Shown here: positions 10,074 to 57,720 of the stretch, one piece after another
Position numbering within the stretch: the stretch's first letter is position 1
Layout: every line of letters starts with the position of its first letter
IMG/VR virus record: IMGVR_UViG_3300007960_000021
Location: 1-63,451 of that record
Source of the DNA: a virus
Taxonomy: Duplodnaviria > Caudoviricetes
Direction: 5' to 3' (one strand)
Length of the DNA: 63,451 nucleotides
Program-made: the position numbers and the translations under genes
Notes under the pieces: generated by a model
Database searches by the model: none
What the model saw: only the letters and a program-made list of their open reading frames with translations
What the model was told of the DNA's origin: nothing

Positions 10074-10193
10074 CCAGGTTTTTTTGCTCAGAATGCGCAG
10101 AATGCTCACCATATTGGTATGATCTGACGGAAGGCCATTGATTCCAGGTGGCCTGAGCGGTTTAGATTGGTCGTACCAGCAACGGAGACGCAG

Positions 10194-11915: not shown

Positions 11916-11970
11916 TTGCCGAGCGTTCGATTGCCTTGACGATGTTTAATTGCTGAACGGAGATTGCCAG

Positions 11971-13576: not shown

Positions 13577-14677
13577 GTGCCTGTTCTGCCCACGTTTCTG
13601 CACCCGCAGATGGTCATGGCTCGTATCAGCCGACTGATTGTCATTAACACGACGCTGCAGGACCGATTTGGGACTGGCGCTGGCGGGAGCAATGTCCGCA
13701 AGACGCCGAGCCGAAGCGGTTCCTACGACGTGTTTGACGACACTCGTGAAGTTGCGACCGCGACCGTCCCCGGTGCCCCGGCTGTCCACATTGCCCGGCA
13801 GCCTGTCGGCAATGTTCCGTTCCGCATCCCGCGTTCGGCTGAGAAGCTGCCGATCCCGAAGGAGACCGTCAACCAGATTCGTCCGGTTGGTGGTCAGGTC
13901 AATGAGATTGACGAGCTTGGCCGTCAGTACATCCAAGACCAAGAGCAGATCGTCCGCCAGCGCAACACGAACCTGCGTGAGTTCCAGACCTCTGCGATGC
14001 TCCGTGGCTCGTACACGTTCACGCAGTCCGGCGTTGACATGTTCACCCATGCCTACAGCGGTGGCTCGATCACCGTTGACTACCAGATTCCGGCTGGCAA
14101 CAAGAGCCAGTTGGACATGACTGGCGACGGTGACATCATCGGCACTGCCTGGGACAACTCGGCCGCGCCGATCGTCCGCGACCTGCTGGCCATCAATGCG
14201 GCGTTCATCGAGAACGTGGGCATTGGCCTGCATGACGTGTTCGTGACGTCGGTCATGTGGGGCCACATCGTCGTGAACGCCGAGGTTCAGTCCTTGGCCG
14301 GATCGACGAATGATCCCGTGTTGGAGTTCAAGCGCGATGAAGTGAAGCAGGAGTTTACTGCGGTCCTTCGCGGTGCCCCCTGGGTCACGTTCCACATCGT
14401 TGACAACGGCTTGAACTTGAGCGGGACGTTCACGAAGCTGATCGCGGACACGGCTGGCGTGTTCACGACCGGCATCGACTCGCGAGTCGTACAGTTCTGG
14501 GAATGCCCTGAGCCGGTGATGAACCCGGTGACGCAGGCCGAGAGCAACGAGTACGGCGAGTACTACTACCACAAGCTGCTTGACGACCCGGTTAGCTACG
14601 AGTTCCATTCGCGGTACAACGGCCTGCCGGTGCTCTTGATTCCCGCTGCCATCTGTTACGCTACCCTGGACTTCTAA
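13577..14677 (+). CDS. Major capsid protein (HK97 fold, lambda gpE-like)
   Basis: 366 aa; VDYQIPAGNK...WDNSAAPIVRDL...SRYNGLPVLLIPAAI; strong GAGGAGG RBS; terminator follows. Confidence 0.85.
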   Translation: MPVLPTFLHPQMVMARISRLIVINTTLQDRFGTGAGGSNVRKTPSRSGSYDVFDDTREVATATVPGAPAVHIARQPVGNVPFRIPRSAEKLPIPKETVNQIRPVGGQVNEIDELGRQYIQDQEQIVRQRNTNLREFQTSAMLRGSYTFTQSGVDMFTHAYSGGSITVDYQIPAGNKSQLDMTGDGDIIGTAWDNSAAPIVRDLLAINAAFIENVGIGLHDVFVTSVMWGHIVVNAEVQSLAGSTNDPVLEFKRDEVKQEFTAVLRGAPWVTFHIVDNGLNLSGTFTKLIADTAGVFTTGIDSRVVQFWECPEPVMNPVTQAESNEYGEYYYHKLLDDPVSYEFHSRYNGLPVLLIPAAICYATLDF

Positions 14678-22318: not shown

Positions 22319-22578
22319 TGTCCCACTACGGTGTCGATACGATCGCATGGACTGACGAGCAGGTGCTCGGCGGAATTGCGAACATGGACAGGTCGAAGGC
22401 GAGGCGGCAGATTGAGAGCGGGGCGTGCCCTGACGAGGACTTCGAGTACATCTACCAGCTTTACATGCTTGCGTACGACGATCTGTCGAGAGCCGCAAGA
22501 GCCAGGGACGATGCTCGGCGTGAGTCAATGAAGAGAAAGACAGAAGCTGCCATGGCAGGGAGAACGAATGGCCACTAA
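22318..22578 (+). CDS. Tail assembly chaperone T-like frameshift extension
   Basis: Lies in the -1 frame of the upstream ORF, open back to the slippery site. Confidence 0.5.
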   Translation: MSHYGVDTIAWTDEQVLGGIANMDRSKARRQIESGACPDEDFEYIYQLYMLAYDDLSRAARARDDARRESMKRKTEAAMAGRTNGH

Positions 22579-25500
22579 TCGCCAGGTTCATAACGCACAG
22601 AAGAAGATGCTGTCTGGGAGGGCCAAGACTTCCGGATACACGCCAGTGTCTCCGTACGCATGGTTTTCACGCATCCGCGACCTGCCAGTCCTGACGTTTG
22701 AGTCGATCGAGATGATGCTTGTCGATCAGACGATACGGCTCGGCCTGTCGATGCGAGCGGCCCCGGTTCAATCTGCCGAGTTCGGATTCGAGAAGGACGG
22801 GCAGTTTGTTCAGGGCGTTCGCTGCCACCACAAAGGTGTTGCACAATGGGTCTCGGCTATGCTCAAAAAGCTTTGGGCGTACGAGATTCACAAGGTCCTT
22901 TCGTCGCAGATTTGGGGATGGTCTTGCGGCGAAGTCATGTGGAAGACTGGTCGAGTTGAAGGCAAGAAGCGAATCGTCGTCGATGAGCTGCTTGACCGGC
23001 ACGCAAGAGACTGTCAGGCCATCGACCTGGATGGACAGTTCTGGGGCGTTCAGTTTGGCGGGATACCAGATCGCGGAAACGTCCAGCTTCCGTCTGGAAA
23101 GTCGTACTGGCATTCGTTCGAGGCCGAGGGCGGAAGCTACTACGGCAAGAGCGTGATGAACGGCCCGCATTCTGCTTGGTACGACAAGTGGTGTCAGGGC
23201 GGCGCGTTGGACGTTCGCAGGCTGTTCATGCTGGCCAATGCGTTCAGCGGTCGAAAGGTCAGATACCCTGAGGGCGTACAGTCGATCGAGGGACTTGGCG
23301 AGAACATTCCGAACCGCGATATCGCAAGGATGCTTGTCGAGCAGATCATGTCCGGTGGCGTGCTGGCAATTCCGATTGCGTACGACGAGCAGGGCAGGGA
23401 GACGTGGAAAGTTGAGGAAGCGTCGTTTCCGTCTTCGCCTTCGCACATCCTTGAGTATCCTGAAAAGATCGACGTTGACATTCTGCATGGACTCGATATC
23501 CCTGACGACTTCATCACTGGCAACAGTGGTGGCGGTGCGTGGCAAGGGAAGATGGTTCCGATGCAGGCTTTCTACATGGGCCTGAACAGGTTTGGTCTGT
23601 CGGTGCTCAAGTCGATGATTCGGCAGGTTATTGAGCCGGGCGTGTTTGCGAACTTCGGGAAGGCGATCGACTTCGACGTCGAGATGAAGCGGCTCGACAA
23701 GCAGGCGATGGAGATGCAAAAGCCTGGCGGGCAAGAGGCTCCCGGCGTCCCTCCTGGCGGCGCTCCTGGTGGAATGCCCGGTGGTCTTCCTGGCGGTGCT
23801 CCCGGTGGTCCTCCTGGTGGCGGAATGATCGGCATGTCGGCGATGGAGCAGGACGGCGGGCATTACGTCACCGCTGACCAGTTGGCTTCGGCGGCAAGAA
23901 GGGCGATGCGACTCGCTCTTGACGGCGCACAGTGGAACGTCACCGGCGCCGGATCATTCATGCTTCGTCGAGGCGACAAGCGACGCCCGTACTCGTGCTT
24001 GATGCTCCCGCTGCCGAACGACCTTGCCGACGATGTTCGTCGTTACGCGGTGACGATGATCGACAAGGAAGACTTGGCCGAGAAGGGCATTGAGGCGGAC
24101 CCGCACGTTACTGTCGCCTACGGCCTTGAGACTGACGACGTTCGCCAGATAGAGCACATCGCTGCCCAGGAAGGCCCGGTCCCGCTGTGGATGATCGGCC
24201 TGAGTTTGTTCAGTTCGCCAGAGCATGACGTCCTCAAGATTGAAGTCCAGAGCGCGGCACTGAACAGGCTTCGCACTGCGGTCTTGTCTGCGATACCAAA
24301 CACGCAGACATACGACGAATACGTCCCGCACGTCACTGTCGCGTACCTGAAGCCTGGCACTGGAGAGAAGTACGTCAACGCCGACTCGCAGATAACCCGC
24401 GAGCCTGGGCATGTCGCTACGTGGCTGAAGTTCAGCGACAGGAACGGAGTCAAGACGGACATTTGCCTGCGAGGCATCGTTAGATTCTCCGCTGACGCTG
24501 GAGAGTTGAATCGCCGCGCGCAACAGGCAGAGGCGGAAGGCCGGAAGCGAGTAGCTTCCATGCTGCGAACTCTCGCGAAGAAGGCGGCTGACGTCCAGCC
24601 GCTTGAGGAGGCTCCGAAGCCTGTTGCTGCGCCAAAGCGTGAAGGCAAGCCGCGACGCCCTGGAAAGCCGACGCTGCGAGGGAGAGGCGAGAAGCGCGGC
24701 GCGACAGCAGGCCCTGACTTGACTCCGCCGACGCCAGTCGCTGGAGAAGTGCAGGGGCAGAAGACGCGACGCAAGGCTGACCGTGTGAGGACCGTGAAGG
24801 GCAATGCCGCAGCCAAAGCCGCATCGCAGTTCCTGAAGGAAGGCAAGCTTGAGGACGCGGTGCGAGAGATGAAGGCCGCTGAGGAATACGGCGTGCCTGG
24901 CGGCGACATCCTGAAGCTGCGAAAGCGAGTCGCGAAGCTTCGCAAGGAATACATTGCGAGGAACGCCGCAAAGCTCACTGAGGAGTTTGCGAGGGCTGCC
25001 GCACACCGAGCCAAGGAAGAGGCTGACAAGTTCATCAAGGCAAGGACCGGGACGTACAAGGACGTTCTGAAAAAGCTGACGTTTGCGAATGGAGGCTCGA
25101 TTGCCGTCGGCAACGACAGGTCTATCAAGGCCCCTCCCGCAACGTGGAAGCTGTACCTGAAGAACGAAAAGGGCAAGCCCGTCTTGGATGAAGACGGAAA
25201 GAAGATTTACATTGGCGACGCAAAGTTTTCGGGCGGGACGGTTGTCGGCACTGTGAGGATGATCTGGAAGCCGAAGCTGCTTGACGCCAACTGGCATCAG
25301 GCTGACATTCGGTACGAGATGCAGGGGTTTGATAAGGACGGAACGCTGCACAAGCAACGGAAGACGATCACCATTGACATCGTTGGCGACAACATCCTCG
25401 GCGCTGTCACGCCAGTCAACCGTCCTCAGAAAACCAGAAGCGCGTCCAAGCCGGGCGACCGTGACGCTCAAAAGATGGTATGGGAGGCCAAGCACGACAG

Positions 25501-27049
25501 GCCGCGTCTCAATACTGAGACAGACGACGACGAAGGCGGCGCCACCGAGATGAGCCTTATCAAACTCGGAATGGACGCAACGGAACTCCTGCGACGGTCA
25601 GCGGAAGCTGCCGCTGCCGGAAAGAAACGAGTTGCGTCCGGCCTGGCAACGAGAGCAAAGAGAGCCGGGGCCAGTGACGCGCAGATCAAGCGTGCCATGT
25701 CCGGCAAGATGCCTGCTGGCGCGAAGGCCGCAAGGAAGCCTGCTGTCGCGAAAGGGAGAAAGGCAGGCGGGAAGTCTCGCCCAATGACAGAGGCGGATGC
25801 AAATGACGCAGAGTTGTTTCACAGGGCATTCTCGGCGATATTCACGTCAGCGCCAGCGGCAAAAGCGATTAAAGCAGAAGATGTCCCTGATCGCCTCACT
25901 GGCAAAAATGCCACAAAGATAGCAGAGAAGAGTGCCAAGAAAATCAAGGCAAGCATTGCTTCGCATTACGGTGCTATCCTTAACAAGGGCGTCTCGAAAG
26001 ATGACCTAAAAAAAGCATCTGCGATGCTGAGCAGAGAAGACTACGACGACTACGAAGACTACGGAGACTACTCAGGTGATTACGCTGAGTACACTCCTCG
26101 TGACCGCAGCAAGCTCAGCCTTGGCGAGAGTGTCGTTGCTGACATCGTTGACGGATGGGCGGGGACAAGTGCAGATCACAGCGCGATTGCGATTGCCGTT
26201 CAAGAATTGATTGGAGAAAGATTTAAGATAAAGGCCGCGTATGATCCAGGCCAGCAAATGCGACGCCGTGGAAAGGGAGCAGCGATAGACAAAGCGAAGG
26301 AAGCGATGAGGGTGGCCGTGTTTGCGTTTGCGGATCATGTCTACGCCGAGACGCAAGAGGCATACAAAAAGGCTGGCGTTACTCACGTACCACTGTGGCG
26401 CGGAATGGATACCAAGCAGAAGCTGGCGAACGCGGGCCACGACGGAGGTCGGTATGACGCGAATGCAGACATTGCACTTCAGCCTCTGTCTTCGTTCTCG
26501 ATGGACCGGGGGACGGCTGACGGATTTGGCGACACGCTCATTGCATCGTTAGTCCCGGTCGAAAACATATTTTGCACATTCGGAACAGGGCTTGGATGCG
26601 CAGGAGAAAGCGAGGTTGTTGTTTTCGGAAGGCCGCTAAAGGCTGCCGCCGTAACTGGCGGAGACGATTTCTTTGAATATCTAAAGCCGGAGCGTCACGA
26701 AGAGGCGGCCAAGAACAAGAAAAAAGTTCCTGTTAAAAAGCTTGCAGAGTCATACGCATCCATAGCGAGCCATCCAAACATCAAGTCGAATAAGACAGTG
26801 CATTCGGCAGTAAAACAAATTGCCAAGTTCGCCTCAGGAAAAATGAAGGATTTGAACAGTGGCAACAAAGGCAAGCTGCCTAGCTCTCAGGTGTTTGACA
26901 TTGCCAAAAAGCTCAAGGCCGCTGGCGTTATTAGCAGCGGCACTGCAGACAAGATGATTGTCTCGGCATATCCGTGGGGCGAGGGCAATCCAGGGAAGTA
27001 TTTGGCAGATGTTCTTGCGAAAATCAAGTTGAAATACAAGGTCAAGTAG
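22568..27049 (+). CDS. Portal protein (Mu gp29/DUF935-like) fused to 2H phosphoesterase (Acb1-like), unknown module and ADP-ribosyltransferase
   Basis: N-terminal ~380 aa portal-like (WGWSCGEVMW, SYYGKSVM..PHSAWYDK); Gly/Pro linker; two HVTV motifs (24104, 24329); C-terminal LWRG...LSSFS...ESEVVV. Confidence 0.8.
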   Translation: MATNRQVHNAQKKMLSGRAKTSGYTPVSPYAWFSRIRDLPVLTFESIEMMLVDQTIRLGLSMRAAPVQSAEFGFEKDGQFVQGVRCHHKGVAQWVSAMLKKLWAYEIHKVLSSQIWGWSCGEVMWKTGRVEGKKRIVVDELLDRHARDCQAIDLDGQFWGVQFGGIPDRGNVQLPSGKSYWHSFEAEGGSYYGKSVMNGPHSAWYDKWCQGGALDVRRLFMLANAFSGRKVRYPEGVQSIEGLGENIPNRDIARMLVEQIMSGGVLAIPIAYDEQGRETWKVEEASFPSSPSHILEYPEKIDVDILHGLDIPDDFITGNSGGGAWQGKMVPMQAFYMGLNRFGLSVLKSMIRQVIEPGVFANFGKAIDFDVEMKRLDKQAMEMQKPGGQEAPGVPPGGAPGGMPGGLPGGAPGGPPGGGMIGMSAMEQDGGHYVTADQLASAARRAMRLALDGAQWNVTGAGSFMLRRGDKRRPYSCLMLPLPNDLADDVRRYAVTMIDKEDLAEKGIEADPHVTVAYGLETDDVRQIEHIAAQEGPVPLWMIGLSLFSSPEHDVLKIEVQSAALNRLRTAVLSAIPNTQTYDEYVPHVTVAYLKPGTGEKYVNADSQITREPGHVATWLKFSDRNGVKTDICLRGIVRFSADAGELNRRAQQAEAEGRKRVASMLRTLAKKAADVQPLEEAPKPVAAPKREGKPRRPGKPTLRGRGEKRGATAGPDLTPPTPVAGEVQGQKTRRKADRVRTVKGNAAAKAASQFLKEGKLEDAVREMKAAEEYGVPGGDILKLRKRVAKLRKEYIARNAAKLTEEFARAAAHRAKEEADKFIKARTGTYKDVLKKLTFANGGSIAVGNDRSIKAPPATWKLYLKNEKGKPVLDEDGKKIYIGDAKFSGGTVVGTVRMIWKPKLLDANWHQADIRYEMQGFDKDGTLHKQRKTITIDIVGDNILGAVTPVNRPQKTRSASKPGDRDAQKMVWEAKHDRPRLNTETDDDEGGATEMSLIKLGMDATELLRRSAEAAAAGKKRVASGLATRAKRAGASDAQIKRAMSGKMPAGAKAARKPAVAKGRKAGGKSRPMTEADANDAELFHRAFSAIFTSAPAAKAIKAEDVPDRLTGKNATKIAEKSAKKIKASIASHYGAILNKGVSKDDLKKASAMLSREDYDDYEDYGDYSGDYAEYTPRDRSKLSLGESVVADIVDGWAGTSADHSAIAIAVQELIGERFKIKAAYDPGQQMRRRGKGAAIDKAKEAMRVAVFAFADHVYAETQEAYKKAGVTHVPLWRGMDTKQKLANAGHDGGRYDANADIALQPLSSFSMDRGTADGFGDTLIASLVPVENIFCTFGTGLGCAGESEVVVFGRPLKAAAVTGGDDFFEYLKPERHEEAAKNKKKVPVKKLAESYASIASHPNIKSNKTVHSAVKQIAKFASGKMKDLNSGNKGKLPSSQVFDIAKKLKAAGVISSGTADKMIVSAYPWGEGNPGKYLADVLAKIKLKYKVK
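25506..25521 (+). repeat. 16-bp palindrome, 1-mismatch copy inside portal CDS
   Basis: GTCTCAATACTGAGAC. Confidence 0.85.
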
Positions 27050-27050
27050 C

Positions 27051-29225
27051 ATGCCTTTGCCTGCCGCAATTCGCTTTGCTGAGTCTGGGTGGATTCCCTA
27101 CAAGGGACCGAAGGGTGGCGTTGGCTGGCAGAACCAGTCAACGGGCAAGGTCGTGTACCAAGAGAAGCAGCCTGGAGCCAGCACCAAGCCGAAAAAGATT
27201 GACTACGAGGGATTGCTGCTGGAAGACGAAAAGGAGAGCGAGTACGGCAAGAAGACCTACATTGAGAGCCACAAGGAACTCGACGGCCTGGTCAAGCAGA
27301 TGAAGAAGGTCGTTTCCGGCATGGGCCACTCAGGGATGCTCAAGGGATACGAGGTAGCAGAGTTTAACCTTGGAACTGGAGAGCTTGACGTAAAGAAGAC
27401 CCTGGAGGGGATATCCTACGTTGCCATGAAGGCCGTTAGCAAGCTCGCATCTGCATCGGGCATGAACGATCAGGTTCTCGCCTCGGACGTTCTTCGCACT
27501 GTCATTGGCGCATTCGATTCTGCTGGAATTTCGTACGGTGTTCTTGGGAAGTACGAAGCGGGGCAGATCAAGGATGCTCTGAGCGACTCCGTGAACAAGA
27601 GCGTCATTGACCACTACCGATCGACGTTTGCTGCAGCGGCGTTTTCGTATTCCATGTCGCTCAGGAAGGACGTCGGCGAGTACATTGGCCTTGACAACGA
27701 AGAGCTTGAAAGCAGCGAGCACGCAGGTAAGTCCATGGAGATGCTTGTCGATTCGCTCGCGGACGATATGGCGAGTAATCATCACGCAATTCGCGCGAAA
27801 GCCATGGAGCTGACGAAGCGGCTGGCGACGACGATCGTGCTTAGCGGAACAGCGCTTCCAGAGGTAATGCCGCTTGCGAGCGTGAGTGATCTCGTGAAGG
27901 CATACAGCTTGGCCGCTTACGAAACCGGATACGGCAAGGACCTCGATGCGGCGGTGAAGGAGTCAATCGACAACGACTATGAAGGCGACCCTGACTATGA
28001 CGACGACGCCCCGCCGATAGGCGACGACTACGAGGACATTGACAGCCTCGACGATCTTCTGCCTGACGTTGACGACATTGGCGACGACGATGTGGCCATC
28101 CCGCCGCCGATTCCAACGAGACCGCCTCTCATTAAAAGGTACGCTGGCGGGCCGACTGACGACACTTTGTCGCAACCTCTGTCGAGCCCTGAGGACTCGG
28201 AGACCGGGAGGGCAATTGTCTGGCACTTCGCGAACGTGATTCAAAAGGGGCTGATCGACAAAGTCCCTCTTGCGTCTGACGAATTCAAGGAGAAGCTCAA
28301 GCACAATTCAGTGTTCCTTGAGCACCAAACAATCAAAGCGTCGCCAGAAGTTACCGTTGCCATGAAGCACGCCATTGCCGTAGATTGCGGCAAGGGGATA
28401 GATGACAGGGTCTCCCCTGAAAGAGTCAAGGCATTCAGTGAGTTCGTCAGGAAGCGAGGCGCAAGGAGTTACTCGAATCTGAAGGGGAGGTTGACTGACG
28501 GAGAGGTAGCGGCGGCGGAACTTGTCACGACCTGGGCGCACAGTTCGGACGGGTCTAGCGACCTAAGCTGGGCGCTGCAGCACGCCGCCGAGGAAATGTT
28601 TGGACTCAAGGACCCGTACAGAACGACAAGAGCGTCTACGCCCTATGCCACAAAGGGGAAGGAGATTCTTGAGGAGTATGGCGACGTTATCGGCGCATTC
28701 ATGGAGCACACTTACGAGCAAACGCAGGCCATGCTTGCCGACGCTGGTATCAAGCACGTCACCCTGTACCGTGGAATCACCATGAGCACCGCGCAGAAAA
28801 ACCGACTGAATCTTGACACGGTCGCGATCAAGTCATTCAGCGGAAGCACGACCATTCGCAGGTCTGGACGCGACGGAGAGGACGTGTCCATGCAGCCGCT
28901 TTCGTCGTTCTCAACATCCCCTGGCACGGCTGCGGAGTTTGGTGAAGTTATGATTGCGGCGGTGGTTCCTGCGGAGGCGATATTCTCGTCGGCGTTTACT
29001 GGGACTGGGTGCCTGAACGAATCGGAGCTTGTCGTCCTGTCCCACAAGATGAACGCTACGGTTCTTGACTTCGGTGACTCAGACTCAGATGCGTACACCG
29101 CAAAAAAGTACTGGGAACTCGCAAGCGGAGAGCTTGACCACGAGAATCAGTCGTCGGTTGCAGGAAAGTCCTCGCCAGACGATGATTACCTCAATGGGCT
29201 TGACGACCTATTTGACGACCTATGA
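27051..29225 (+). CDS. ADP-ribosyltransferase-domain protein with N-terminal tag B
   Basis: TLYRGI...QPLSSFS...NESELVVL (R-S-ExE); N-terminal GWxxYxGPxGGVGWxNxxTGKVVYQ tag. Confidence 0.75.
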   Translation: MPLPAAIRFAESGWIPYKGPKGGVGWQNQSTGKVVYQEKQPGASTKPKKIDYEGLLLEDEKESEYGKKTYIESHKELDGLVKQMKKVVSGMGHSGMLKGYEVAEFNLGTGELDVKKTLEGISYVAMKAVSKLASASGMNDQVLASDVLRTVIGAFDSAGISYGVLGKYEAGQIKDALSDSVNKSVIDHYRSTFAAAAFSYSMSLRKDVGEYIGLDNEELESSEHAGKSMEMLVDSLADDMASNHHAIRAKAMELTKRLATTIVLSGTALPEVMPLASVSDLVKAYSLAAYETGYGKDLDAAVKESIDNDYEGDPDYDDDAPPIGDDYEDIDSLDDLLPDVDDIGDDDVAIPPPIPTRPPLIKRYAGGPTDDTLSQPLSSPEDSETGRAIVWHFANVIQKGLIDKVPLASDEFKEKLKHNSVFLEHQTIKASPEVTVAMKHAIAVDCGKGIDDRVSPERVKAFSEFVRKRGARSYSNLKGRLTDGEVAAAELVTTWAHSSDGSSDLSWALQHAAEEMFGLKDPYRTTRASTPYATKGKEILEEYGDVIGAFMEHTYEQTQAMLADAGIKHVTLYRGITMSTAQKNRLNLDTVAIKSFSGSTTIRRSGRDGEDVSMQPLSSFSTSPGTAAEFGEVMIAAVVPAEAIFSSAFTGTGCLNESELVVLSHKMNATVLDFGDSDSDAYTAKKYWELASGELDHENQSSVAGKSSPDDDYLNGLDDLFDDL

Positions 29226-29238
29226 GAAGGAGAGCTGA

Positions 29239-30453
29239 ATGACGATCTACCCTGACCGGGATATCCGAAACGCCGACTGGACAAAGAAGACGAAGGATGT
29301 TCGGATTGGCAGGCGGCGAAGGCGAGCAAGACCAAAAGGACGAGCGGCCATTGATGACAGGAGCGCATTGTCGCTGGCTGTTATTCGCTTCGCCGCGAAG
29401 AAGTCGGCGGCTGAACTCATAAAGTCGGCCGAAGAGGCCATGGCTGCCGGTCGCGTCCGCGTGGCCAATCGTTTGATGACACTGGCGAAGCGGGCCGGTG
29501 CAAGCGACTCTGCGGCAACGAAGGCCGTTGGTCGAGCGCTGCCTGAAAGAACGAGCACCAAGACGCGGCGAGGCAAGGCCAAGGCCGACACGTCGTCATT
29601 TGTTGGTGCCAAGCTGAAGACTGTCACGGTAACGCTGAAGAGCGGCAAGAAAAAGAAGAAACAGCAGTACGTGCAAGCCAATGGGAAGCCGCTGCCGCCG
29701 CACATTCCGCCGATCCCGCCAAACTGGAAAGATGTCAAGTGGAACCCAGACCCGAAGGGCGACAGACTTGTCGTTGCTCGTGACGAGGCTGGCCGCGTCC
29801 AGTCGAAGTACAGCGAGAAGTTCAGCGGCGGAAACGCTGGAAAGAAATTCTCGCGAGTCGGCGAACTGGCACAGAAGCGAGAAGACGTTGCCCGCCAAAA
29901 CGCTGGGAACATGCGGCACAAGAACCCCAAGATTCGCGAGGCGGCGCAGGTGCTCGCGCTTATCTTGGCGACTGGCATTCGGGTTGGCTCTGGCCGTGAA
30001 ACAAATGCAAAGGTTCAGTCGTACGGAGCGACGACGCTGCTGGGCAGGCACGTTGTCGTCAAGGGCGGCAAGGTGTCTCTGCAATACACAGGAAAGAAGG
30101 GCATCCAGAGAAACGTGCCTATCAACGACCCGCGAATTGCTGCCGAGCTGAAGAAGCGAAAGCGGGCGTCAGGCCCCGACGGCAAGCTGTTCAAGGTGGC
30201 GGCTACCTCGATGCGCAAGTACACTGACTCACTTGACGGCGGCGCGTTCACGCCGCACGACTTCCGAACCATGATGGGAACGAACATCGCGGCGGCGGAA
30301 GTTGCCAAGCTGCCGAAGGCCAAGAACGAGGCCGAGTTCAAACAGATCAGCATGGGCATTGCCAAGAAGGTTGCTGCTCAGCTTGGTAACACGCCGACCG
30401 TTGCTTTGCAGTCGTACATTGACCCTACCGTATGGGCCAAGATCAAGCCGTAG
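29239..30453 (+). CDS. DNA topoisomerase IB (bacterial/poxviral type) with N-terminal tag A
   Basis: IPPNWKDV, DEAGRVQSKY, GIRVG, SYGATTL, GKKG, DFRT, LGNTPTVALQSYIDP (catalytic Tyr). Confidence 0.92.
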   Translation: MTIYPDRDIRNADWTKKTKDVRIGRRRRRARPKGRAAIDDRSALSLAVIRFAAKKSAAELIKSAEEAMAAGRVRVANRLMTLAKRAGASDSAATKAVGRALPERTSTKTRRGKAKADTSSFVGAKLKTVTVTLKSGKKKKKQQYVQANGKPLPPHIPPIPPNWKDVKWNPDPKGDRLVVARDEAGRVQSKYSEKFSGGNAGKKFSRVGELAQKREDVARQNAGNMRHKNPKIREAAQVLALILATGIRVGSGRETNAKVQSYGATTLLGRHVVVKGGKVSLQYTGKKGIQRNVPINDPRIAAELKKRKRASGPDGKLFKVAATSMRKYTDSLDGGAFTPHDFRTMMGTNIAAAEVAKLPKAKNEAEFKQISMGIAKKVAAQLGNTPTVALQSYIDPTVWAKIKP

Positions 30454-30460
30454 TTTCACC

Positions 30461-30476
30461 GTCTCATTACTGAGAC
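30461..30476 (+). repeat. 16-bp palindrome, perfect copy, intergenic
   Basis: Exact match. Confidence 0.95.
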
Positions 30477-30491
30477 ACAGCGGAGGAAGAA

Positions 30492-30665
30492 ATGAAAGGT
30501 CCAAGGACATTCGCGGAGCCATCCGCGCCTGACGCTGACACCGACAGCACTCAGACTTCCGTGCAGGTCGGCGACATTTGGGTCGATACATCGACCAACG
30601 ACGTTTACATCTGTGCCGCATCGACTCCCGGCGCGGCTGTCTGGAAGAAGGTCAACAACGCATAA
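30492..30665 (+). CDS. Small protein (57 aa) with tail-fibre-like GDIWVDT..YIC...AVW motif
   Basis: GGAGG RBS; hand-translated MKGPRTFAEPSAP...VGDIWVDTSTNDVYICAASTPGAAVWKKVNNA*. Confidence 0.65.
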   Translation: MKGPRTFAEPSAPDADTDSTQTSVQVGDIWVDTSTNDVYICAASTPGAAVWKKVNNA

Positions 30666-30675
30666 GGGCGGTCAG

Positions 30676-31011
30676 ATGAAAAACTCAGCAGGGGCCGCAG
30701 GCTCCGACAATCTGTCTGGATTCGAGGGCGGGAAGAATGCCAGCAAGACCGATCCGTTCGGCTGCGGGTGCGACACGCACTTGACGAATCCGGTGGACTG
30801 GCGGGCCAATCGCGGCCCGGAGGATGAATTCGACCCTGACGACGAGGAACTTCGGGAGACGCCTCCTGAGGTCATTGAGGCGCTTGGGTTCGATCCGAAG
30901 TCGTCCGAAAGCGAGCCTGCCGCGTCTCGGCTTGGCAAAAAGCGTATGCGGCCGGTTCGCGATCGCGGTGACTATGAGGGGCTTAGCCACATTCGAGCGG
31001 AGGACTACTGA
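30676..31011 (+). CDS. Small acidic hypothetical protein
   Basis: Contains DPDDEELRETPPEVIEALGFDP; stop overlaps the next start. Confidence 0.55.
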   Translation: MKNSAGAAGSDNLSGFEGGKNASKTDPFGCGCDTHLTNPVDWRANRGPEDEFDPDDEELRETPPEVIEALGFDPKSSESEPAASRLGKKRMRPVRDRGDYEGLSHIRAEDY

Positions 31012-32000
31012 TGATCGACTTGGTCCGGATGGCGTCAAGGGGGTGGAAGCGATATCAGGGTCCTCGCGGCGGCGTCGGCTGGGTCAATTCGATTACAGGC
31101 AAGGTAGTGTACCAAGACGAACGCCCTGGCGACGGCGAGCCTGCAAAGAAGAAGTCGCCTGCCAAGCGGAAAGGGAGGGCCGCAAAGCCTGCCGCAAAGC
31201 CTGCCGCAAGGCCATCTGCAAGGGCTGCGAAAAAGCCTGCGAAAAAGCCTGCGAAAAAGCCTGCGAAGAAAGCTGCCAAGCCCGTCCGCGTGACAGAGAG
31301 GTTCACTGGGGACGCAGAGGGAAGTCTTGCTGAACTCAGGAAGTATGGCGGCGGAAGTCTCCCGAAGGGATTGAAGAATGCGGGCGAACTTGCAAGTCTT
31401 GGCGGTGCCTCGGAAGGCGACGAAAGCGCCAACATAATGGAGATGGAGCCCGGCAGGTGGGACATTTCGTTTGGCAGCAAAGGCACGTTTGGCCATACGA
31501 CTGTTGACATGAGGGACAAGTCTGTCCGCATTGAACTTTGCATGGTCAGCAAGGAGAAGCGAGGGACGGGGTTCGCCACGGACATGCTGCGGAACATCGT
31601 CAGTAACGCCCAGCGGCTCGGCCTGAAGAAAATCACGCTGCAGGCAGTAGAGGATGGGCCTGCGGTTTGGCCGAAGTTCGGGTTTAGTGCGAATCTCGGC
31701 GAGGAAGAGCTTGTCGGCGCCCCGAAGGGCGCTAAAGAAGTCAGCGATCTCATGCTGACGCCTGAAGGGAGGGAGCATTACAAGACGATACAGTGGAACT
31801 ACGATGACGTTGATTTTGAAATGTCACTGAAGCCGGGAAGCACGGACCTCAAGGTGTTCAATGAGTACATGAAGTCAAAGAGCCCCAAAAGCAAGAGTTG
31901 GCGCAAGCCGCTGTTCCCGAACGCGAAGCCGACTAGCGGCAGCAGGTATGACGATAGCGGCGACGATTACGACGATTATGACGACGACGATGACTATTGA
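31011..32000 (+). CDS. GNAT acetyltransferase-like protein with tag B, PAKK repeats and DY tail
   Basis: VSKEKRGTGFATDML (acetyl-CoA motif A)...ITLQA...VWPKFGF. Confidence 0.75.
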   Translation: MIDLVRMASRGWKRYQGPRGGVGWVNSITGKVVYQDERPGDGEPAKKKSPAKRKGRAAKPAAKPAARPSARAAKKPAKKPAKKPAKKAAKPVRVTERFTGDAEGSLAELRKYGGGSLPKGLKNAGELASLGGASEGDESANIMEMEPGRWDISFGSKGTFGHTTVDMRDKSVRIELCMVSKEKRGTGFATDMLRNIVSNAQRLGLKKITLQAVEDGPAVWPKFGFSANLGEEELVGAPKGAKEVSDLMLTPEGREHYKTIQWNYDDVDFEMSLKPGSTDLKVFNEYMKSKSPKSKSWRKPLFPNAKPTSGSRYDDSGDDYDDYDDDDDY

Positions 32001-32647
32001 TCCACGCGAAGCTTAGGAGCAAGAAAATGCGACAGTCGAAGACCATCGAAAACTGCGGCTCTCCGATTGAGCTTGTGAAGTGCGGGCTCGCGCTGACTCG
32101 AAACGGAGAGCGGCTGAAGCCTCGTCTCGTGGCTGAGGCTGTACGCATGGGAGCGTCGTCGTTCGGCATCGTCGGCGACAAACGAAAGCTGATCCGCGAC
32201 GGAGAAACGTGGCACATCACAAGGATGGCCAGTTCGCCGGAAGAGCTTGAAAAGAAGGCCGCTGAGGCGGAAGCGGCTGGAAGCAAGCGAGTGGCGTCGC
32301 GTCTTCGCACGCTGGCGAAGAAGGCCGGTGGTGGCGGCAAGCCACCTGGCCCTGCCGACTACGACGACTACGACTACGACGACTCCGAGGTTCCGTTGGC
32401 GCGTGCCGACAGGGGTGTATCGCCGGAAACCCAGGCCATGTTGATCGCGTCCGGTGCGGACAGGGGTCAGCCTGACGACTACGACGACTACGACTACGAC
32501 GACTCCGAGGTTCCGTTGGCGCGTGCCGACAGAGGCGCGGCCGAGGCCAAAAAGCCACTCGGCCCTGCCGACTACGATGAGTACGGCGACTACGAGGAGC
32601 CGGAAGATGACGACGAAGATTACGACTACGGCGACGATGACTATTGA
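31997..32647 (+). CDS. Tag A protein with Asp-Tyr repeats
   Basis: RMASSPEELEKKAAEAEAAGSKRVASRLRTLAKKAG followed by DYDDYDYDD repeats. Confidence 0.7.
   Translation: MIHAKLRSKKMRQSKTIENCGSPIELVKCGLALTRNGERLKPRLVAEAVRMGASSFGIVGDKRKLIRDGETWHITRMASSPEELEKKAAEAEAAGSKRVASRLRTLAKKAGGGGKPPGPADYDDYDYDDSEVPLARADRGVSPETQAMLIASGADRGQPDDYDDYDYDDSEVPLARADRGAAEAKKPLGPADYDEYGDYEEPEDDDEDYDYGDDDY
32351..32532 (+). repeat. 62-bp direct repeat (32351-32412 and 32471-32532), 120-bp period
   Basis: One mismatch; encodes DYDDYDYDDSEVPLARADR twice. Confidence 0.9.
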
Positions 32648-32666
32648 TACCTGAAAGGGCGACGCG

Positions 32667-33566
32667 ATGGCAAACGGCAGTACGATCTTGGTTTCATTCG
32701 AGGGGAGCGGTCTCAACTGGTGTCGATGGGTTCTTGAAAAGTGCTGCAAGATCAGGACTCCAGGCGGGCACCTGACTGGCATGGGCAACGAGGGGCGATA
32801 TGCGTTCTATCGCACCCACAACGTCAACTGCAGAAAGATTGCGGTTCGCCATGGGTGGCGTCCGTACTACGGCAACGACGGCAAGGCTTGTCACGACAGG
32901 GCGATACTGCTGGTCCGGCATTACCTTGAGTCGTACGCCAGGGAGATGCGTGGATACGGCGCAATGAGTCGCGTTGGCGTGTATTGCGAAAACGTGAAAG
33001 CCTTTGACGAGTTCGAGGGCGAGAAGATCGTTGTCAGGTATGAGGACCTGTTAAGCAAGGAACTGATCGGGCAGAGACAGATCGCGGAGTTCCTTGGGGC
33101 GGAATTTGACGACTCGAACTTTGATGTTGAAAGGGAGTCCGCCGTCTCTGTTGAGTGGTACAATCGGCTGAAGCGAACGAACGGCGGCGCTCGAACGAAG
33201 GACTACGGCGACCTTACTTGCAACACCGCTGGAGTGCCTGAGGTCGAGAAGAGGATCGTCAAGCGAGTTGTCCGAAGGTCACTGTCGAGCGTCCAGATCG
33301 CAAGGTACATGACACAGGACATACGCGCCATTGCGGCCGACGGAGACATAAGCGTGTGCGGCGCGCCATTGTCGGTCGAGGAGGCGAACATTGCAGCGAG
33401 AGTCGGGCAGTACGAGTTCGACGTGATGATTGATGGCGAATGGCAGCACGTAGTAAGCGACTGCGGCGAGTGGGTCGAGGTAGGCCACGGATGGGTAGCT
33501 GAAGATTGTAGGCCGAGCGGGTGTCGGTACATAACTCCCTCTGGGCGTTCCATACGAGTTTACTGA
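32667..33566 (+). CDS. Sulfotransferase-fold protein
   Basis: VSFEGSGLNW (degenerate 5'-PSB loop), ILLVRHYLES (3'-PB-like), IVVRYEDLL...IAEFLG. Confidence 0.6.
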   Translation: MANGSTILVSFEGSGLNWCRWVLEKCCKIRTPGGHLTGMGNEGRYAFYRTHNVNCRKIAVRHGWRPYYGNDGKACHDRAILLVRHYLESYAREMRGYGAMSRVGVYCENVKAFDEFEGEKIVVRYEDLLSKELIGQRQIAEFLGAEFDDSNFDVERESAVSVEWYNRLKRTNGGARTKDYGDLTCNTAGVPEVEKRIVKRVVRRSLSSVQIARYMTQDIRAIAADGDISVCGAPLSVEEANIAARVGQYEFDVMIDGEWQHVVSDCGEWVEVGHGWVAEDCRPSGCRYITPSGRSIRVY

Positions 33567-33573
33567 GGAGCAT

Positions 33574-34854
33574 GTGATGTTCAACAAAGCAGACGTGCAG
33601 TTCGCCAGGCTTGCGAAGGATGCCGCGTACTTTCTTGAGGCGGCTGCTGCCGCAAAGGCTGCTGGCAAAAAGCGAGTCGCTTCTCGCATGTTGACGTTGG
33701 CCAAGCGAGCCGGGGCGTCGCAGGCGAAGATCAACAAGATTGACAAGCAGCCGTTTGGCGAGAAGGCGGCGAGGCCGGGCGCTGCAGCCAAGAAGACGGC
33801 AAAAAAGCCTGCCGCAAAGAAGCCTGCTGCGAAGAAGCCTGCGCGTGCAACGAAGAAGGCTTCAACGCCCGCAGAACAGTTGCACATGGACGCAATCTCG
33901 TCGCTAAAGTCTGCCGGGCTGAACGCGCGGAAGCACATGCAAGACGGCAGGGCGCAACTGAGGATCACCGGAGACGACAATGCCGCCGAGAAGAAGCTCA
34001 AGAAAGCTGGGTGGAAGACCAACAGCACCAATGTTCCGTATGGTGGCATGTCAAGCTCCACGATGATGACGTCACCCGACGGAAAAATGCAGGTGAACAT
34101 CCGCAACAAGGGGAGCAATAAGTACTCGACAGTCAGTGTGAAAAAGCTTGCGGGAGGATCGTCCGGCTCTGGCGAGTCGAGCGGCGGAATGACTCCGCAG
34201 CAGACAAAGAAGATTGCGACCTCAATCGTACCCGGTGGCGCAAGCAGGCACGTAGGCACCGATGGTGTAGTGTCGTGGACAAAGAAGGGCGGCTACGCAC
34301 ACAATCAGTTAAAGAGAATGCACGCCGCCTTGAAGGCCAACGGATTTGAGCACGAGAAGTCCAATATGTTCGGCACTCCTGACGGATCGACGGTTGGCGA
34401 CGACACGTACTACAAAGACAAACACGGAAACAAGGTGCAAGTCAGTTCGTCCCTCGGTGCGACGAGTAGCTACAATCGCTACAGTGTCACGTTCACGCCT
34501 GCCGGACACAAGAATTCTGGCCGCACGAAGTCGGCTGGCGACACGACGATATCCAGCAAGGCGCCGAGCGGTAGCATTCTTCGCAAGATGAACTACTCGG
34601 ATCGGGCTGACGTGCAGGACGCGCTCTATGAGGCGAGCGAAGCGACGATGCTTGGCGGTGGATCGTCAACGGGGTACAAGGAAGGCGTGTCGCAGGCCAG
34701 GTCAGCGCTTCAGGCGGCTGCACAGAAGATGATCGACACAGGGCTCGACGCAGAGTCCGTCAATGAGTACCTGTACAATGAGATGTCCAAGGACTACAAG
34801 GACAAAGAGCTTGAGCCGTTCAGGAAGATGCTTTCCGAGGTAACGGGAAGGTAG
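33574..34854 (+). CDS. Tag A protein, basic, unknown cargo domains
   Basis: RLAKDAAYFLEAAAAAKAAGKKRVASRMLTLAKRAGAS plus KKPAA repeats. Confidence 0.7.
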   Translation: MMFNKADVQFARLAKDAAYFLEAAAAAKAAGKKRVASRMLTLAKRAGASQAKINKIDKQPFGEKAARPGAAAKKTAKKPAAKKPAAKKPARATKKASTPAEQLHMDAISSLKSAGLNARKHMQDGRAQLRITGDDNAAEKKLKKAGWKTNSTNVPYGGMSSSTMMTSPDGKMQVNIRNKGSNKYSTVSVKKLAGGSSGSGESSGGMTPQQTKKIATSIVPGGASRHVGTDGVVSWTKKGGYAHNQLKRMHAALKANGFEHEKSNMFGTPDGSTVGDDTYYKDKHGNKVQVSSSLGATSSYNRYSVTFTPAGHKNSGRTKSAGDTTISSKAPSGSILRKMNYSDRADVQDALYEASEATMLGGGSSTGYKEGVSQARSALQAAAQKMIDTGLDAESVNEYLYNEMSKDYKDKELEPFRKMLSEVTGR

Positions 34855-34863
34855 GATGCCTAC

Positions 34864-37407
34864 ATGCCGTCGCTGGTTGATTCAATACTGAAGGTCGGGC
34901 TTGTCGCTGGCCAGACTTTTGTTGACGAATTGCGGGGGAGGCTGCTGTCTCAGGTTGGTCTTCTAAATGCCGGTGTTCCGATTGAAACGGTGATCCGAGC
35001 CGCCCGCGAGATCATGTCTGAGACAGCACCTCTTATCGCATCGCTGGCGTCGGATATTCAGATAGCCGGTTGGGTTGCCGGGCTTGACGAGACGGCAAGG
35101 TCGCTGCCGAAGAACGTCCAGAGGGCAATCGCTGAACTCGATGATCCTCTTGGCCTGAAGGCCCCGAAGCTCTACCTGCCGTCTGACCCGGTTCCGCCAT
35201 CGGAAGTGAAGTTCTCGCCGGTCGTCGAGTTTCCATGGATGGACGAAGCGATCAATCGCCTGATTCACCGAAACGTGATGACGCGAGACGAGTTCGACGA
35301 GGCTTCTGACGACCTGAAGTCTCAGGCGTTCACCATCGCGAACATTGACAGCGAAGAGACGATCGGAACGATAAGGGACCTGCTCGCAGAGCACATGGCT
35401 GACCGCGACGCGAAGAACACTCCCAGGGAGTTCTACAATCGTGTCGTTGACAAGCTTGGTTCGTCGCCGATAGGGATGCCGCATCTTGAGACGGTGTTTC
35501 GCACGAACACCACGATGGCATACTCCGCGTCGCGCGAGGCGATGCACAGCAGTCCGGTTGTCCAGGCGGTGTTTCCGTACGCTGCGTACTGGTCGATTCG
35601 GGACGGAAGGGCAAGGCAGAATCACCGGGCACTTGAGAAGCTCGGCCTGAACGGAACGAACGTCTATCGCGCAGACGATCCCATGTGGAAGCTGTTCACT
35701 CCACCGTGGGACTTCAACTGCCGCTGCAGCAAGACGTACATGACGATCCGACAAGCAGCACAGGCTGGCGTCGAGGAGGCGCAGGACTGGTTGAACTCAG
35801 GCGTTCCCCCGTCGTCGCCAGAGTGGCGGATTGACGACATTCCGTTCCGCAAGCAGAACGACTTCGTTGGCGTCAGGCTTTCGACGACAGTTAGGATGAT
35901 GCGGTTCGGACTGTCGGCGTCCGAGTTGCTGAAGCGATCCGCAGAGGCCGCCGCTGCTGGCAAAAAGCGAATTGCATCCGGTCTCGCCACGCGAGCAAAA
36001 AAGGCCGGTGCCACTGACGCGCAGATTGCCAGGGCAATGAAGGGCGGCGGCAAGGCCAAGCCTGCAGCAAAAAGACAGGCCAAGAAGTCAGCAAGCACTG
36101 GCTCGCGGCCTATGACAAAAGAGGAATGGAAAGACCCGGCCTTGTTCAAGTCGGCGGTCACTGCAATTTTCAGCACTGGCCTTGCATCGAAGGCTGTCCC
36201 CAAAAGCAGGCTCAAGGGCGCCTCTAGCTGGAGGAAGGTCAGCGAAGTTGGCATGGCGTACGCCCCGAAGATGAAGGCCAATATAGCCAAGCACTACGGA
36301 GCCATGCTAGAGAAGTCGCTTCCGGCGAGCCACCTGAAAAAGGTCGTGACTGAGCTGCTAGGTGATGACGACGACGATTACAGCTACTATGGCTACGCTC
36401 ACGGCGAGCGGCTAAAGGAGGCCGAGGATGCGAAGGGCGACGGCGAGAAGCTCGTCGCATTCATTGTTGATAGCTGGGCGGAAACCAGCGCTGACCACGA
36501 CGCTCACGCGATTGCGATACAGGAGATTGTCGGTGAGACGCTAGGAGTGAAACCTAAATGGAGTTCAACCGACCGAATGGACAGGGGCGAGGTCCTCGGA
36601 GTCAAGAGGCTGCTCAAGAAGGTCGTTGGCGAATTTGCCAAGAGGGTGTATGCCGATACTCAAGCCTCATTTAAGAAGGCAGGGGTGACGCACCTGCCGC
36701 TGTGGCGAGGAATGCACTCGGATCACAAGCTGAAAGAGGGATTCAATGACACTGAATACTCCCCCGAAGTAGACGTTGCCCTGCAGCAACTGTCGTCATT
36801 CTCGCTGGAGCAAGAGACGGCAAAGACATTTGGCGACACGCTGATCGCGGCAACGGTCCCCGTCAAGGACGTATTCTGCGTGTTCGGGAACGGACTCGGA
36901 TGCGCCAGTGAGACTGAGGTTGTCGTTCTCGGTAGGCCGATGAAGGCGGCAGTCGTGAAGGGCATGTCTGGAGACGACTTCTTCGAGGAACTGAATCCTG
37001 AGTTTCACAGAAAGGCGATCGAGGACAAAAAGGCTGCGGACGCGAGAAACAGAGAGAGTGCTGCCAGCCTGAAGGCGGCTGACTCAAAGGCTGGCAAGCC
37101 CTACGCGCTGCCGCCGAAGCTTGCAGAGAAGTCGGGCGACGTGCTCAAGCTGCTCAAGTCTAAGGCCAAGAGCGCGGCGGGCAAGAAGAAGCTTGCGGCG
37201 TTCAACAGGTACATGAAGTACATGACGAGCGGGAATTTGAAGATAGGGTCGAAGAAGATGACTGAGGTGTCCCACGGAATGAAGGAGGCTGGCCTGATCG
37301 ACTGGGGATTGCACATTAGGATCGTAAATGCTTCAGTGGCAGGAGTTGACCTTGACCCAAGAATTGTCATGGAGGCAGTCTTGAAGCACATCATCAAGGA
37401 GTCGTAG
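34864..37407 (+). CDS. MuF / SPP1 gp7-like minor head protein fused to tag A and ADP-ribosyltransferase
   Basis: HLETVFRTN...YWSIRDGRARQNH...PPWDFNCRC; C-terminal LWRG...LSSFS...SETEVVV. Confidence 0.88.
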   Translation: MPSLVDSILKVGLVAGQTFVDELRGRLLSQVGLLNAGVPIETVIRAAREIMSETAPLIASLASDIQIAGWVAGLDETARSLPKNVQRAIAELDDPLGLKAPKLYLPSDPVPPSEVKFSPVVEFPWMDEAINRLIHRNVMTRDEFDEASDDLKSQAFTIANIDSEETIGTIRDLLAEHMADRDAKNTPREFYNRVVDKLGSSPIGMPHLETVFRTNTTMAYSASREAMHSSPVVQAVFPYAAYWSIRDGRARQNHRALEKLGLNGTNVYRADDPMWKLFTPPWDFNCRCSKTYMTIRQAAQAGVEEAQDWLNSGVPPSSPEWRIDDIPFRKQNDFVGVRLSTTVRMMRFGLSASELLKRSAEAAAAGKKRIASGLATRAKKAGATDAQIARAMKGGGKAKPAAKRQAKKSASTGSRPMTKEEWKDPALFKSAVTAIFSTGLASKAVPKSRLKGASSWRKVSEVGMAYAPKMKANIAKHYGAMLEKSLPASHLKKVVTELLGDDDDDYSYYGYAHGERLKEAEDAKGDGEKLVAFIVDSWAETSADHDAHAIAIQEIVGETLGVKPKWSSTDRMDRGEVLGVKRLLKKVVGEFAKRVYADTQASFKKAGVTHLPLWRGMHSDHKLKEGFNDTEYSPEVDVALQQLSSFSLEQETAKTFGDTLIAATVPVKDVFCVFGNGLGCASETEVVVLGRPMKAAVVKGMSGDDFFEELNPEFHRKAIEDKKAADARNRESAASLKAADSKAGKPYALPPKLAEKSGDVLKLLKSKAKSAAGKKKLAAFNRYMKYMTSGNLKIGSKKMTEVSHGMKEAGLIDWGLHIRIVNASVAGVDLDPRIVMEAVLKHIIKES

Positions 37408-56949: not shown

Positions 56950-57610
56950 AAGAGCGGGGATTACCCTTTCGGGTATGAAAGCAATTCCAGGGCAGGCAGA
57001 GCCGAGCGTACCTATCACCACTTGATCCGGAACGAATCAAGCACCGATAAGCGCAGGCCAAAGATGACCGGACCAAGTTGTCCTAGTAGTCGAGGTGACG
57101 TTCACAAAGCTAGTAGACCTACTCTTCAATGAGTTGAGTTCAGCCAACGTCCCATCGGGACGGGCAACATGGCAAGAGGGTATGAAAAGCGCCGACTTCC
57201 ACAGGAAAGAAACGGACCCCAACGATCCACCGGATCGCCATAACGCCCAAAAGAACTTGACGACGACTTGAACGATATGACAGCGCGGTAGGCCGGGAAA
57301 GCAGTCCACGTAGACAAGACAGGGCATTCGCAACATCGCATGAGATACGCGGTGTCCGATATGCGTGACGTTTCCTGGTTGGGCAAAGCGGTCGAAACTC
57401 AAGTCGCATCATTACGGCAGGGGATGTTCGGAAAAACGACAAGGAAGTGCGTGCAGTTCGCGGAAACGAACGAATCGCGATAGTCGCCAGCATTCACCGT
57501 CAAGACGAAACTCATTGAGGCCACTTGTGAGGCGTAGGTTAGAGGTTATCCGAACGCGCTACGGCGCGCGGGACCGATAGCATACTAGCGAAGAATCGAA
57601 CTTAAAATCG
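56950..57610 (+). ncRNA. Candidate large structured non-coding RNA (~650 nt; ends approximate)
   Basis: No credible ORF; six nested long-range helices with G-U pairs favouring the + strand, plus local hairpins. Confidence 0.65.
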
Positions 57611-57720
57611 AATTGCCCGCCATGCGTGACGTATCGCGGGTAATGCAACCGTTTGGCATCGGTTGCCTGATGATGACAGCCAAAGTTCAGTTTCCAGTTT
57701 CTTTGCGAGGAGTTTCAGTT

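Follow-up and report, generated by a model that had tools for sequence, protein, structure and literature searches.

A repeated 40-residue leader, a candidate address label, heads effector cassettes in the portal-MuF island of an uncultured freshwater phage

The IMG/VR virus record IMGVR_UViG_3300007960_000021, a linear sequence of 63,451 bp with an estimated completeness of 79% that was analyzed over its whole length (here called the window), encodes a 36- to 42-residue module, Tag A, in exactly six copies spread over five proteins: the portal protein (two copies), a type IB topoisomerase (TopIB), two ORFans, and a MuF protein. These proteins are all encoded in a single island between the portal and MuF genes. 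The module is repeated and under selection at the protein level, is predicted to form a helical hairpin, and occupies the place at which proteins of a sister phage carry a structurally different leader, Tag B. Our analysis suggests that Tag A is a docking module or address label that loads cargo into the procapsid during head assembly, a reading to which we assign a probability of about one in two.

The cargo island is a block of nine open reading frames (ORFs) at positions 22568 to 37407 (~15 kb). It contains the portal, an ADP-ribosyltransferase (ART) protein, TopIB, a 132-residue ORF, a GNAT-like protein, three ORFans, and a MuF-ART fusion. By profile search, seven of the nine island ORFs contain Tag A or Tag B, and no other frame of the window does. 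The tagged genes are as follows.

22568 to 27049, plus strand: portal polyprotein, 1493 residues (Pfam Portal_Mu; 43 portal homologues)
27051 to 29225, plus strand: ART protein, 724 residues, with an N-terminal Tag B at 27060 to 27194 (Pfam; Tag B profile)
29239 to 30453, plus strand: topoisomerase IB with a Tag A leader (Pfam; sister-phage orthologue at 46% identity)
31011 to 32000, plus strand: GNAT-like protein with an N-terminal Tag B at 31014 to 31148, followed by a K/A/P-rich linker (Pfam; Tag B profile)
31997 to 32647, plus strand: ORFan with Tag A and acidic D/Y repeats; likely ATG at 32027
33574 to 34854, plus strand: ORFan, 426 residues, with an N-terminal Tag A and a KPAAKK-type linker; ATG at 33577
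34864 to 37407, plus strand: MuF-Tag A-ART fusion, 847 residues (Pfam Phage_Mu_F and ART)

The six copies of Tag A were taken as 42-residue windows for all tests.

24473 to 24598, plus strand: copy 1, portal residues ~636 to 677, directly after the 2H phosphoesterase domain
25553 to 25678, plus strand: copy 2, portal residues ~996 to 1037, at the start of a linker-ART cassette
29383 to 29508, plus strand: copy 3, TopIB residues ~49 to 90, before a basic linker and the topoisomerase IB core
32213 to 32338, plus strand: copy 4, in ORF 31997 to 32647, followed by acidic D/Y repeats
33598 to 33723, plus strand: copy 5, residues ~8 to 49 of ORF 33574 to 34854
35893 to 36018, plus strand: copy 6, MuF protein residues ~344 to 385, between the MuF domain and an ART cassette

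An earlier note, made from the DNA letters alone, had named six such peptides in five proteins, and a pattern search of all six frames recovered these six and no others. Each begins with an R-F/M/L motif whose R or K is encoded at 24482, 25562, 29386, 32222, 33607, or 35902. A hidden Markov model (HMM) of the six copies scores its own members at 65 to 74 bits and the next best frame of the window at 9.9 bits. In leave-one-out profiles, for which two paralogous copies (portal copy 2 and MuF) were omitted together, the omitted copy still scored 38 to 50 bits and the best other frame 7 to 11 bits. The alignment also stands out from Ala/Lys-rich composition and so passes the shuffle test by which the earlier note would have had it refuted: in 1,000 composition-preserving shuffles per copy the maximum was 8 to 13 bits, compared to 46 to 56 bits for the real copies. 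Nine columns are invariant across the six copies, and the sequences flanking them are unrelated. Portal copy 2 and the MuF copy do lie within one duplicated, paralogous cassette of ~400 residues (48% identity), so that Tag A is found in five independent contexts rather than six.

Tag A lies near the N terminus in three copies (residues 8 to 49, 49 to 90, and 66 to 101 of their proteins) and is internal in the other three. The earlier note had placed it at the start of cargo modules, usually followed by a Lys/Ala/Pro linker, and the Pfam domain layout agrees with this placement. For example, the portal polyprotein consists of a Mu-type core, a P/G-rich linker, a diverged C-terminal module, the 2H domain, Tag A, an unknown domain, a second Tag A, a DRAT-like ART, and a C-terminal region. 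The linker is present after five of the six copies, where the next 40 residues have a net charge of +6 to +10; the claim fails for the copy in ORF 31997, which runs into the acidic D/Y repeats (net charge of -6). D/Y-rich tails similar to this repeat also terminate ORFs 27051 and 31011.

The conservation of Tag A is at the level of protein, as had been proposed from its divergent codons. DNA identity between copies is 40 to 67%, and of the 17 to 30 residues that are identical between any two copies, 10 to 19 are encoded by different codons. Within the cassette duplicated between portal and MuF, synonymous sites are saturated in the tag, linker, and ART segments (proportion of synonymous differences, 0.72 to 0.78), and the proportion of nonsynonymous differences (pN) is lowest in the tag (0.17), compared to 0.36 for the ART module and 0.46 for the linker. 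Amino acid identity is correspondingly 73% in the tag versus 47% and 46% in the linker and ART module. Tag A is the most constrained segment of this cassette, even though the protein that carries it is already anchored in the head.

AlphaFold2, run on the six-row alignment, predicts a helix at residues 9 to 21, a three-residue turn at the invariant Gly, and a second helix at residues 25 to 41, with a mean predicted local distance difference test score (pLDDT) of 84.6. This model bears out the helix-Gly-turn-helix hairpin that had been guessed from the consensus, and fold searches with it return only antiparallel helical hairpins, drawn from bundles and TPR-like repeats (best Foldseek TM-score of 0.76 with E>1; best VIA Z score of 6.3). 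These matches indicate a predicted hairpin and nothing more specific. The two helices differ in charge, the first having a net charge of -3 to 0 and the second +5 or +6 in all six copies, and the whole tag is at +4 to +7. Helix 2 presents a conserved polar stripe (R26, S29, T33, and K36) beside a hydrophobic stripe. A complex prediction for two copies of Tag A, run without controls, scored 0.01 and weighs neither for nor against binding.

As far as sequence searches reach, Tag A is private to this phage and new as a family. A profile search of 1.84 billion representative proteins returned four matches: the window's own portal and ORF 31997, a 189-residue fragment of ORF 33574 with one substitution, and one spurious repeat protein. 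Since the spurious protein registered at 39.6 bits (E = 3.8e-5), the search would have picked up copies that differ as much as those of this genome do among themselves (38 to 50 bits). In a word-indexed search of 5.8 billion clusters with the tag region of TopIB as the query, none of 174 candidates passed, and a pattern scan of IMG/VR matched 157 stretches, none of which was confirmed. At E<=10, all six copies together matched only four Pfam families at chance level, none of them DNA binding, and no curated profile of helix-hairpin-helix or SAP-type DNA-binding motifs. Sequences in the PDB gave designed helical repeats only. The proteins around the tag were also searched. A metagenome scan with ORF 33574 gave no confirmed match, GenBank phages matched the portal only in 2H or ART pieces and not in its core, and scanning IMG/VR with one protein at a time, the portal core or MuF, gave no matches. 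The 43 portal core homologues (36 to 50% identity, most with PF06074) were traced to 43 IMG/VR loci, none of which contains Tag A at E<=0.1. The distant MuF-ART homologue P0005 does not contain it either.

The closest of these loci, L008 in record G001, belongs to a sister phage with a major capsid protein 67% identical and a decoration protein 51% identical to those of the window. Gene order is kept through a scaffold candidate, portal, cargo genes, MuF, and the next large ORF. The search that recovered all six window copies found no Tag A in the whole G001 record, which instead contains ten full copies of Tag B, a different 40-residue leader, in seven ORFs, one of them 1,623 residues long with four leaders. 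The positions of the two leaders correspond. The G001 orthologue of TopIB (46% identity over 273 residues) carries Tag B at the position of Tag A in the window, and the G001 copy of the window's ART family has Tag B in front. The two portals are colinear through core, linker, and 2H domain up to a common R-F/M-S/A junction, beyond which the window continues into Tag A and G001 into Tag B and then ART. The G001 MuF protein (338 residues) has no tag and stops just before the position at which the window MuF runs into Tag A and ART. Because these positions correspond, the leaders belong to the cargo cassettes rather than to portal or MuF, and the copies of Tag A in these two proteins look like fused cargo cassettes instead of parts of the anchor proteins. 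The comparison further suggests that either tag can stand in for the other, with Tag A as one of several interchangeable leaders of effector cassettes. That orthologous sister-phage cargo has a different leader at the same place strengthens the reading of Tag A as an address label. The TopIB gene (29239 to 30453), which lies in the cargo island with a leader and is kept with another leader in the sister phage, also suggests a topoisomerase carried in the virion.

Tag B has two copies in the window, identified by repeat comparison and profile on the plus strand at 27060 to 27194 (the 724-residue ART protein) and 31014 to 31148 (the GNAT-like protein). Its invariant positions are W, GP.GG, W.N, TG, Q, and PG. 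Tag B has no match in Pfam and was not found in GenBank phages; it is also present in loci L035, L054, and L056, and in other phages it heads many cargo modules. The model of Tag B, a three-stranded sheet (pLDDT of 70), gave 14 matches at Z>=2 when compared to 48,161 chains, all but one to WW or WW-containing domains. The best match has a Z score of 3.1 and a root mean square deviation of 1.5 A over 30 residues; such scores are low in themselves, and the resemblance is a lead. WW domains serve to dock peptides. The predicted WW-like fold of Tag B thus points to a peptide-docking module, and Tag A, which occupies the equivalent position, plausibly has a docking function as well. Among the proteins with Tag B, those at L008 19122 to 20297 and L052 618 to 1544 (sister phage) contain an HExxH motif and are possible metallopeptidases, and in two others Tag B is immediately preceded by an RMF-like segment (Pfam E of about 2e-7).

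Repeated leaders are not restricted to this pair of phages. In L054, an unrelated phage with another portal family, four adjacent ORFs beside the large terminase and portal genes each begin with Tag B, preceded by a different motif, and one further ORF of the cluster, in which the profile did not detect Tag B, has a Zeta-toxin domain. L011 has a third type of repeated leader in four copies in three ORFs, two of which contain ART-PolyVal domains. All-against-all comparison within each locus showed repeated leaders in three of 44 phages (the window, L008, and L011), and L054 is a further case.

Tag A, Tag B, the L011 leader, and a C-terminal module in the portals of relatives all start with [RK]-[MFL]-[AS], without detectable homology among the four. 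In the window this motif lies at the six Tag A positions given above and at 27072 and 31026, and the alignment of the window and sister portals breaks exactly at it. The junction may represent either a place of cleavage or a strand used in docking, and the motif is so short that it proves nothing. As a general site it is not supported, since 10 hits versus 3.9 expected include six design sites, leaving four extra hits and no enrichment. The portal C-terminal module follows a Q/G/P-rich linker at about residues 385 to 520 of portal homologues P0007 to P0047 as a conserved helix-GxG-helix. It occurs once per portal in 28 of the 43 loci, and the window copy (about 23830 to 23930) is diverged. Tag A as a form of this module of the Mu-type clade is not supported: the module HMM had no hit on Tag A and hhalign gave a probability of 3%, and what the two have in common is limited to the leading R-hydrophobic-small motif and the helix-Gly-helix layout. 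Elsewhere in these loci, an 82-residue stretch of the L018 portal ORF (residues 1099 to 1180) is duplicated at 90% identity at the N terminus of the next ORF.

The earlier note had named a packaging, ejection, or oligomerization signal as candidate roles. We favor an address label because Tag A is confined to the portal-MuF island, is independent of the cargo that it precedes, appears interchangeable with a probable docking domain, and has a precedent in T4. Each effector cassette consists of a leader, a linker that is usually basic, and an enzyme. The Tag A hairpin would bring the cargo into the procapsid while the head assembles, and the enzymes (TopIB, ADP-ribosyltransferases, and unknowns) would be carried in the virion and delivered into the host together with the DNA. 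The copies of Tag A in portal and MuF would be cargo cassettes fused to head-anchored proteins, and cargo fused in this manner would need to be cut free by the head protease. We infer packaging in the virion, docking, a docking partner, and any such cleavage; fusion to portal and MuF and the position of the genes suggest that the proteins bearing Tag A are internal to the head.

The capsid targeting sequence (CTS) of T4 is about 10 residues long, strictly N-terminal, and removed by gp21. Tag A, in contrast, is a predicted folded hairpin of 40 residues that occurs inside polyproteins as well and for which the searches gave no relatives. The likeness is that of a conserved leader on otherwise unrelated proteins, as the six copies of Tag A stand before unrelated domains; passages of PMC3012670 describe the T4 internal proteins, which are injected and act against host defense, as having only the conserved CTS in common, which takes them into the scaffolding core. 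A second precedent, for the shape, is the P22 scaffolding protein, which according to a preprint (bioRxiv 10.1101/2022.12.13.520362) docks inside the procapsid through a small, basic helix-turn-helix domain that binds coat protein. Tag A is also predicted to be a basic helix-turn-helix (pLDDT of 84.6; helix 2 at +5 or +6), but the P22 domain lies at the C terminus of the scaffold and not before enzymes, and the structure and sequence searches with Tag A listed generic hairpins and no specific match to it.

A candidate protease or scaffold protein is encoded upstream of the D-like and E-like head genes.

10167 to 11915, plus strand: candidate protease/scaffold protein, 582 residues

This protein has a conserved N-terminal domain (49% identity to the sister phage), an acidic tract of 173 residues of which 95 are Asp or Glu (net charge of -92), and a basic helical C terminus. 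The N-terminal domain matched no Pfam family, and no protease domain was identified. Two candidate relationships were not supported: the protein has no similarity to Mu protease I, and its C terminus, which looked like Tag A by eye ('AGERKRLSARV'), has a negative HMM score and does not match Tag A. On charge, the acidic tract is a possible electrostatic partner of the basic leaders and linkers.

Several observations weigh against an address label. The island ORFs at 30613 and 32667 have no tag, and most long portal fusions in related loci have no repeated leaders at E<1e-4. In polyproteins every cargo domain has its own leader (two leaders in the portal and four in the 1,623-residue sister ORF), although one leader per polypeptide would suffice for targeting, so that leaders on each domain fit processing or a function of each domain better. 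Tag A is also best conserved in proteins that are already anchored in the head, where targeting should be redundant. Finally, a basic amphipathic helix could equally bind DNA.

The leaders on each domain and the conservation in anchored proteins keep alive a role in processing, in which the leader or the R/K-hydrophobic-small motif that it starts with would mark the places at which the head maturation protease divides polyproteins into individual effectors and trims free cargo, with the hairpin as an exosite or handle. Injection requires that portal-fused cargo be released, and processing of a portal C terminus has been reported for Mu: according to passages of PMC11915804, the last 124 residues of the Mu gp29 portal are absent from the virion structure, which its authors attribute to cleavage by protease I. 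The window portal belongs to the same Pfam family (Portal_Mu), with the difference that Mu has no enzymes at the portal C terminus. The common start of nonhomologous leaders and of the portal module with [RK]-[MFL]-[AS], at which the sister portal alignment breaks, also speaks for processing. However, proteases usually need a short extended site and not a conserved 40-residue hairpin, the motif is not enriched outside the design sites (4 extra versus 3.9 expected), the L054 copies of Tag B follow a different motif, and no protease domain was identified. We regard processing as an unlikely explanation.

A function after injection, in which the basic hairpin and linker would tie the effector to nucleic acid or a host target, or the cargo to packaged DNA, appears rather improbable. 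The charge of helix 2 in all six copies, its conserved polar stripe, the basic 40 residues that follow five of the six copies, and the presence of a DNA enzyme among the cargo would agree with it. Against these stand the lack of any DNA-binding Pfam family at E<=10, the resemblance of the positional equivalent Tag B to a peptide-binding WW fold and not to a nucleic acid binder, and one tagged protein that is strongly acidic after the tag.

Self-association has still less to recommend it, and we consider it quite improbable. Tags would pair into helical bundles, and cargo would gather on the 24 tags of a portal dodecamer or form a cargo body. The same tag does occur on anchors (portal and MuF) and on free cargo, and by inference from the AlphaFold2 model a lone Ala-rich hairpin core of 40 residues would be too small for stability. 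However, the Tag B cargo of this phage has no anchor bearing Tag B in the 79%-complete record, the sister MuF is untagged, and all tags have a net charge of +4 to +7. An inert structured spacer or relic of cassette duplication with no function of its own, for which two copies within one duplicated cassette might speak, is very improbable given that the tag has the lowest pN of the cassette while synonymous sites are saturated and that nine columns are invariant across six copies with unrelated flanks.

A broader form of the address label is speculative, and we think it more probably wrong than right by a wide measure. It would be a clade-wide 'zip-code' system in which interchangeable, structurally unrelated docking domains (Tag A, the WW-like Tag B, and the L011 type) head every effector cassette, each type docking on a different part of the flexible C-terminal appendage of the portal or on a polyacidic scaffold, and in which the head protease frees the cassettes at the R-hydrophobic-Ala/Ser junction. 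The Pro/Gly-rich linker of the portal would then be one conceivable binding site, for the WW-like Tag B.

GC skew is positive from end to end of the window, the long ORFs are on the plus strand, and replication genes are located downstream. Genes for packaging and the head are as follows.

197 to 1645: nuclease half of the large terminase (profile match)
11950 to 12819: lambda D-like decoration protein
13577 to 14677, plus strand: major capsid protein, lambda E-like, 67% identical in the sister phage

ORF 197 to 1645 matched large-terminase profiles over their C-terminal (nuclease) part only; the ATPase half lies outside this ORF and may be located before the start of the contig or at its other end. 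The ORF that follows the terminase, 2549 to 4177, is similar to a 'tail tip cage' protein of known structure (9d93 chain Ma; E = 6e-9) and not to a portal, and the sole portal-like gene of the window is the one at 22568, distant from the terminase. Outside the cargo island, the neighboring plus-strand ORFs 57589 to 58050 and 58069 to 59300 have an 89-residue segment in common (45% identity).

The stretch from 29239 to 37407 is at least partly present in contigs of 17 public runs from seven studies, with half or more of it in six runs. Run labels are freshwater metagenome (2017) and oyster metagenome (2025), and some 2025 runs are unlabeled; one run may be the sample of origin. Four runs from four studies have nearly identical sequence, differing by a single base and by a skip of 87 bases within a repeat. 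The skip, in one contig of run X2, lies at 32385 to 32473 within the acidic D/Y repeat of ORF 31997 to 32647 and looks like copy number variation of the repeat. In contigs of two runs from different studies, G>T at 31045 changes the first invariant Trp of the GNAT Tag B to Leu.

Head-packaged effector fusions and capsid targeting sequences are already known. Short tags on flexible linkers take diverse enzymes into protein shells as the cargo-loading peptides of encapsulins and the encapsulation peptides of bacterial microcompartments, although these are other shells and other sequences, and the likeness is one of analogy only. Closer to the window are the polyvalent and MuF/portal effectors of Iyer et al. 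(2017, 2022), as described in main-text passages of PMC5512222 and PMC9503650, where portal or MuF proteins that carry 2H and ART domains are the signature of effectors that are packaged in the head and injected. The window resembles these systems in its Portal_Mu-2H-DRAT-like ART and Phage_Mu_F-ART fusions, its neighboring ART and GNAT proteins, and its late-gene context (major capsid protein, large terminase, and decoration protein). It differs in its repeated leader before each cassette, which the same passages do not describe. In the main-text passages of the literature searched, we found no description of a folded, swappable leader before every cassette, including those internal to a portal.

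If Tag A is an address label, it marks the proteins that this phage injects: a type IB topoisomerase, three ADP-ribosyltransferases, a GNAT protein, and several domains of unknown function. A private, repeated leader in the portal-MuF island would then offer a rule by which the injected effectors of uncultured phages could be found. If the 'zip-code' form were true, the tags would be search handles for injected effectors and tools for packaging foreign proteins. If Tag A is a processing or DNA-binding element instead, it nonetheless represents a compact module under strong selection that had not been named before. That orthologous cargo in the sister phage carries, in the corresponding place, a leader of another structure suggests swappable loading signals, which bears on how phage heads recruit cargo and on engineered protein delivery by phages.

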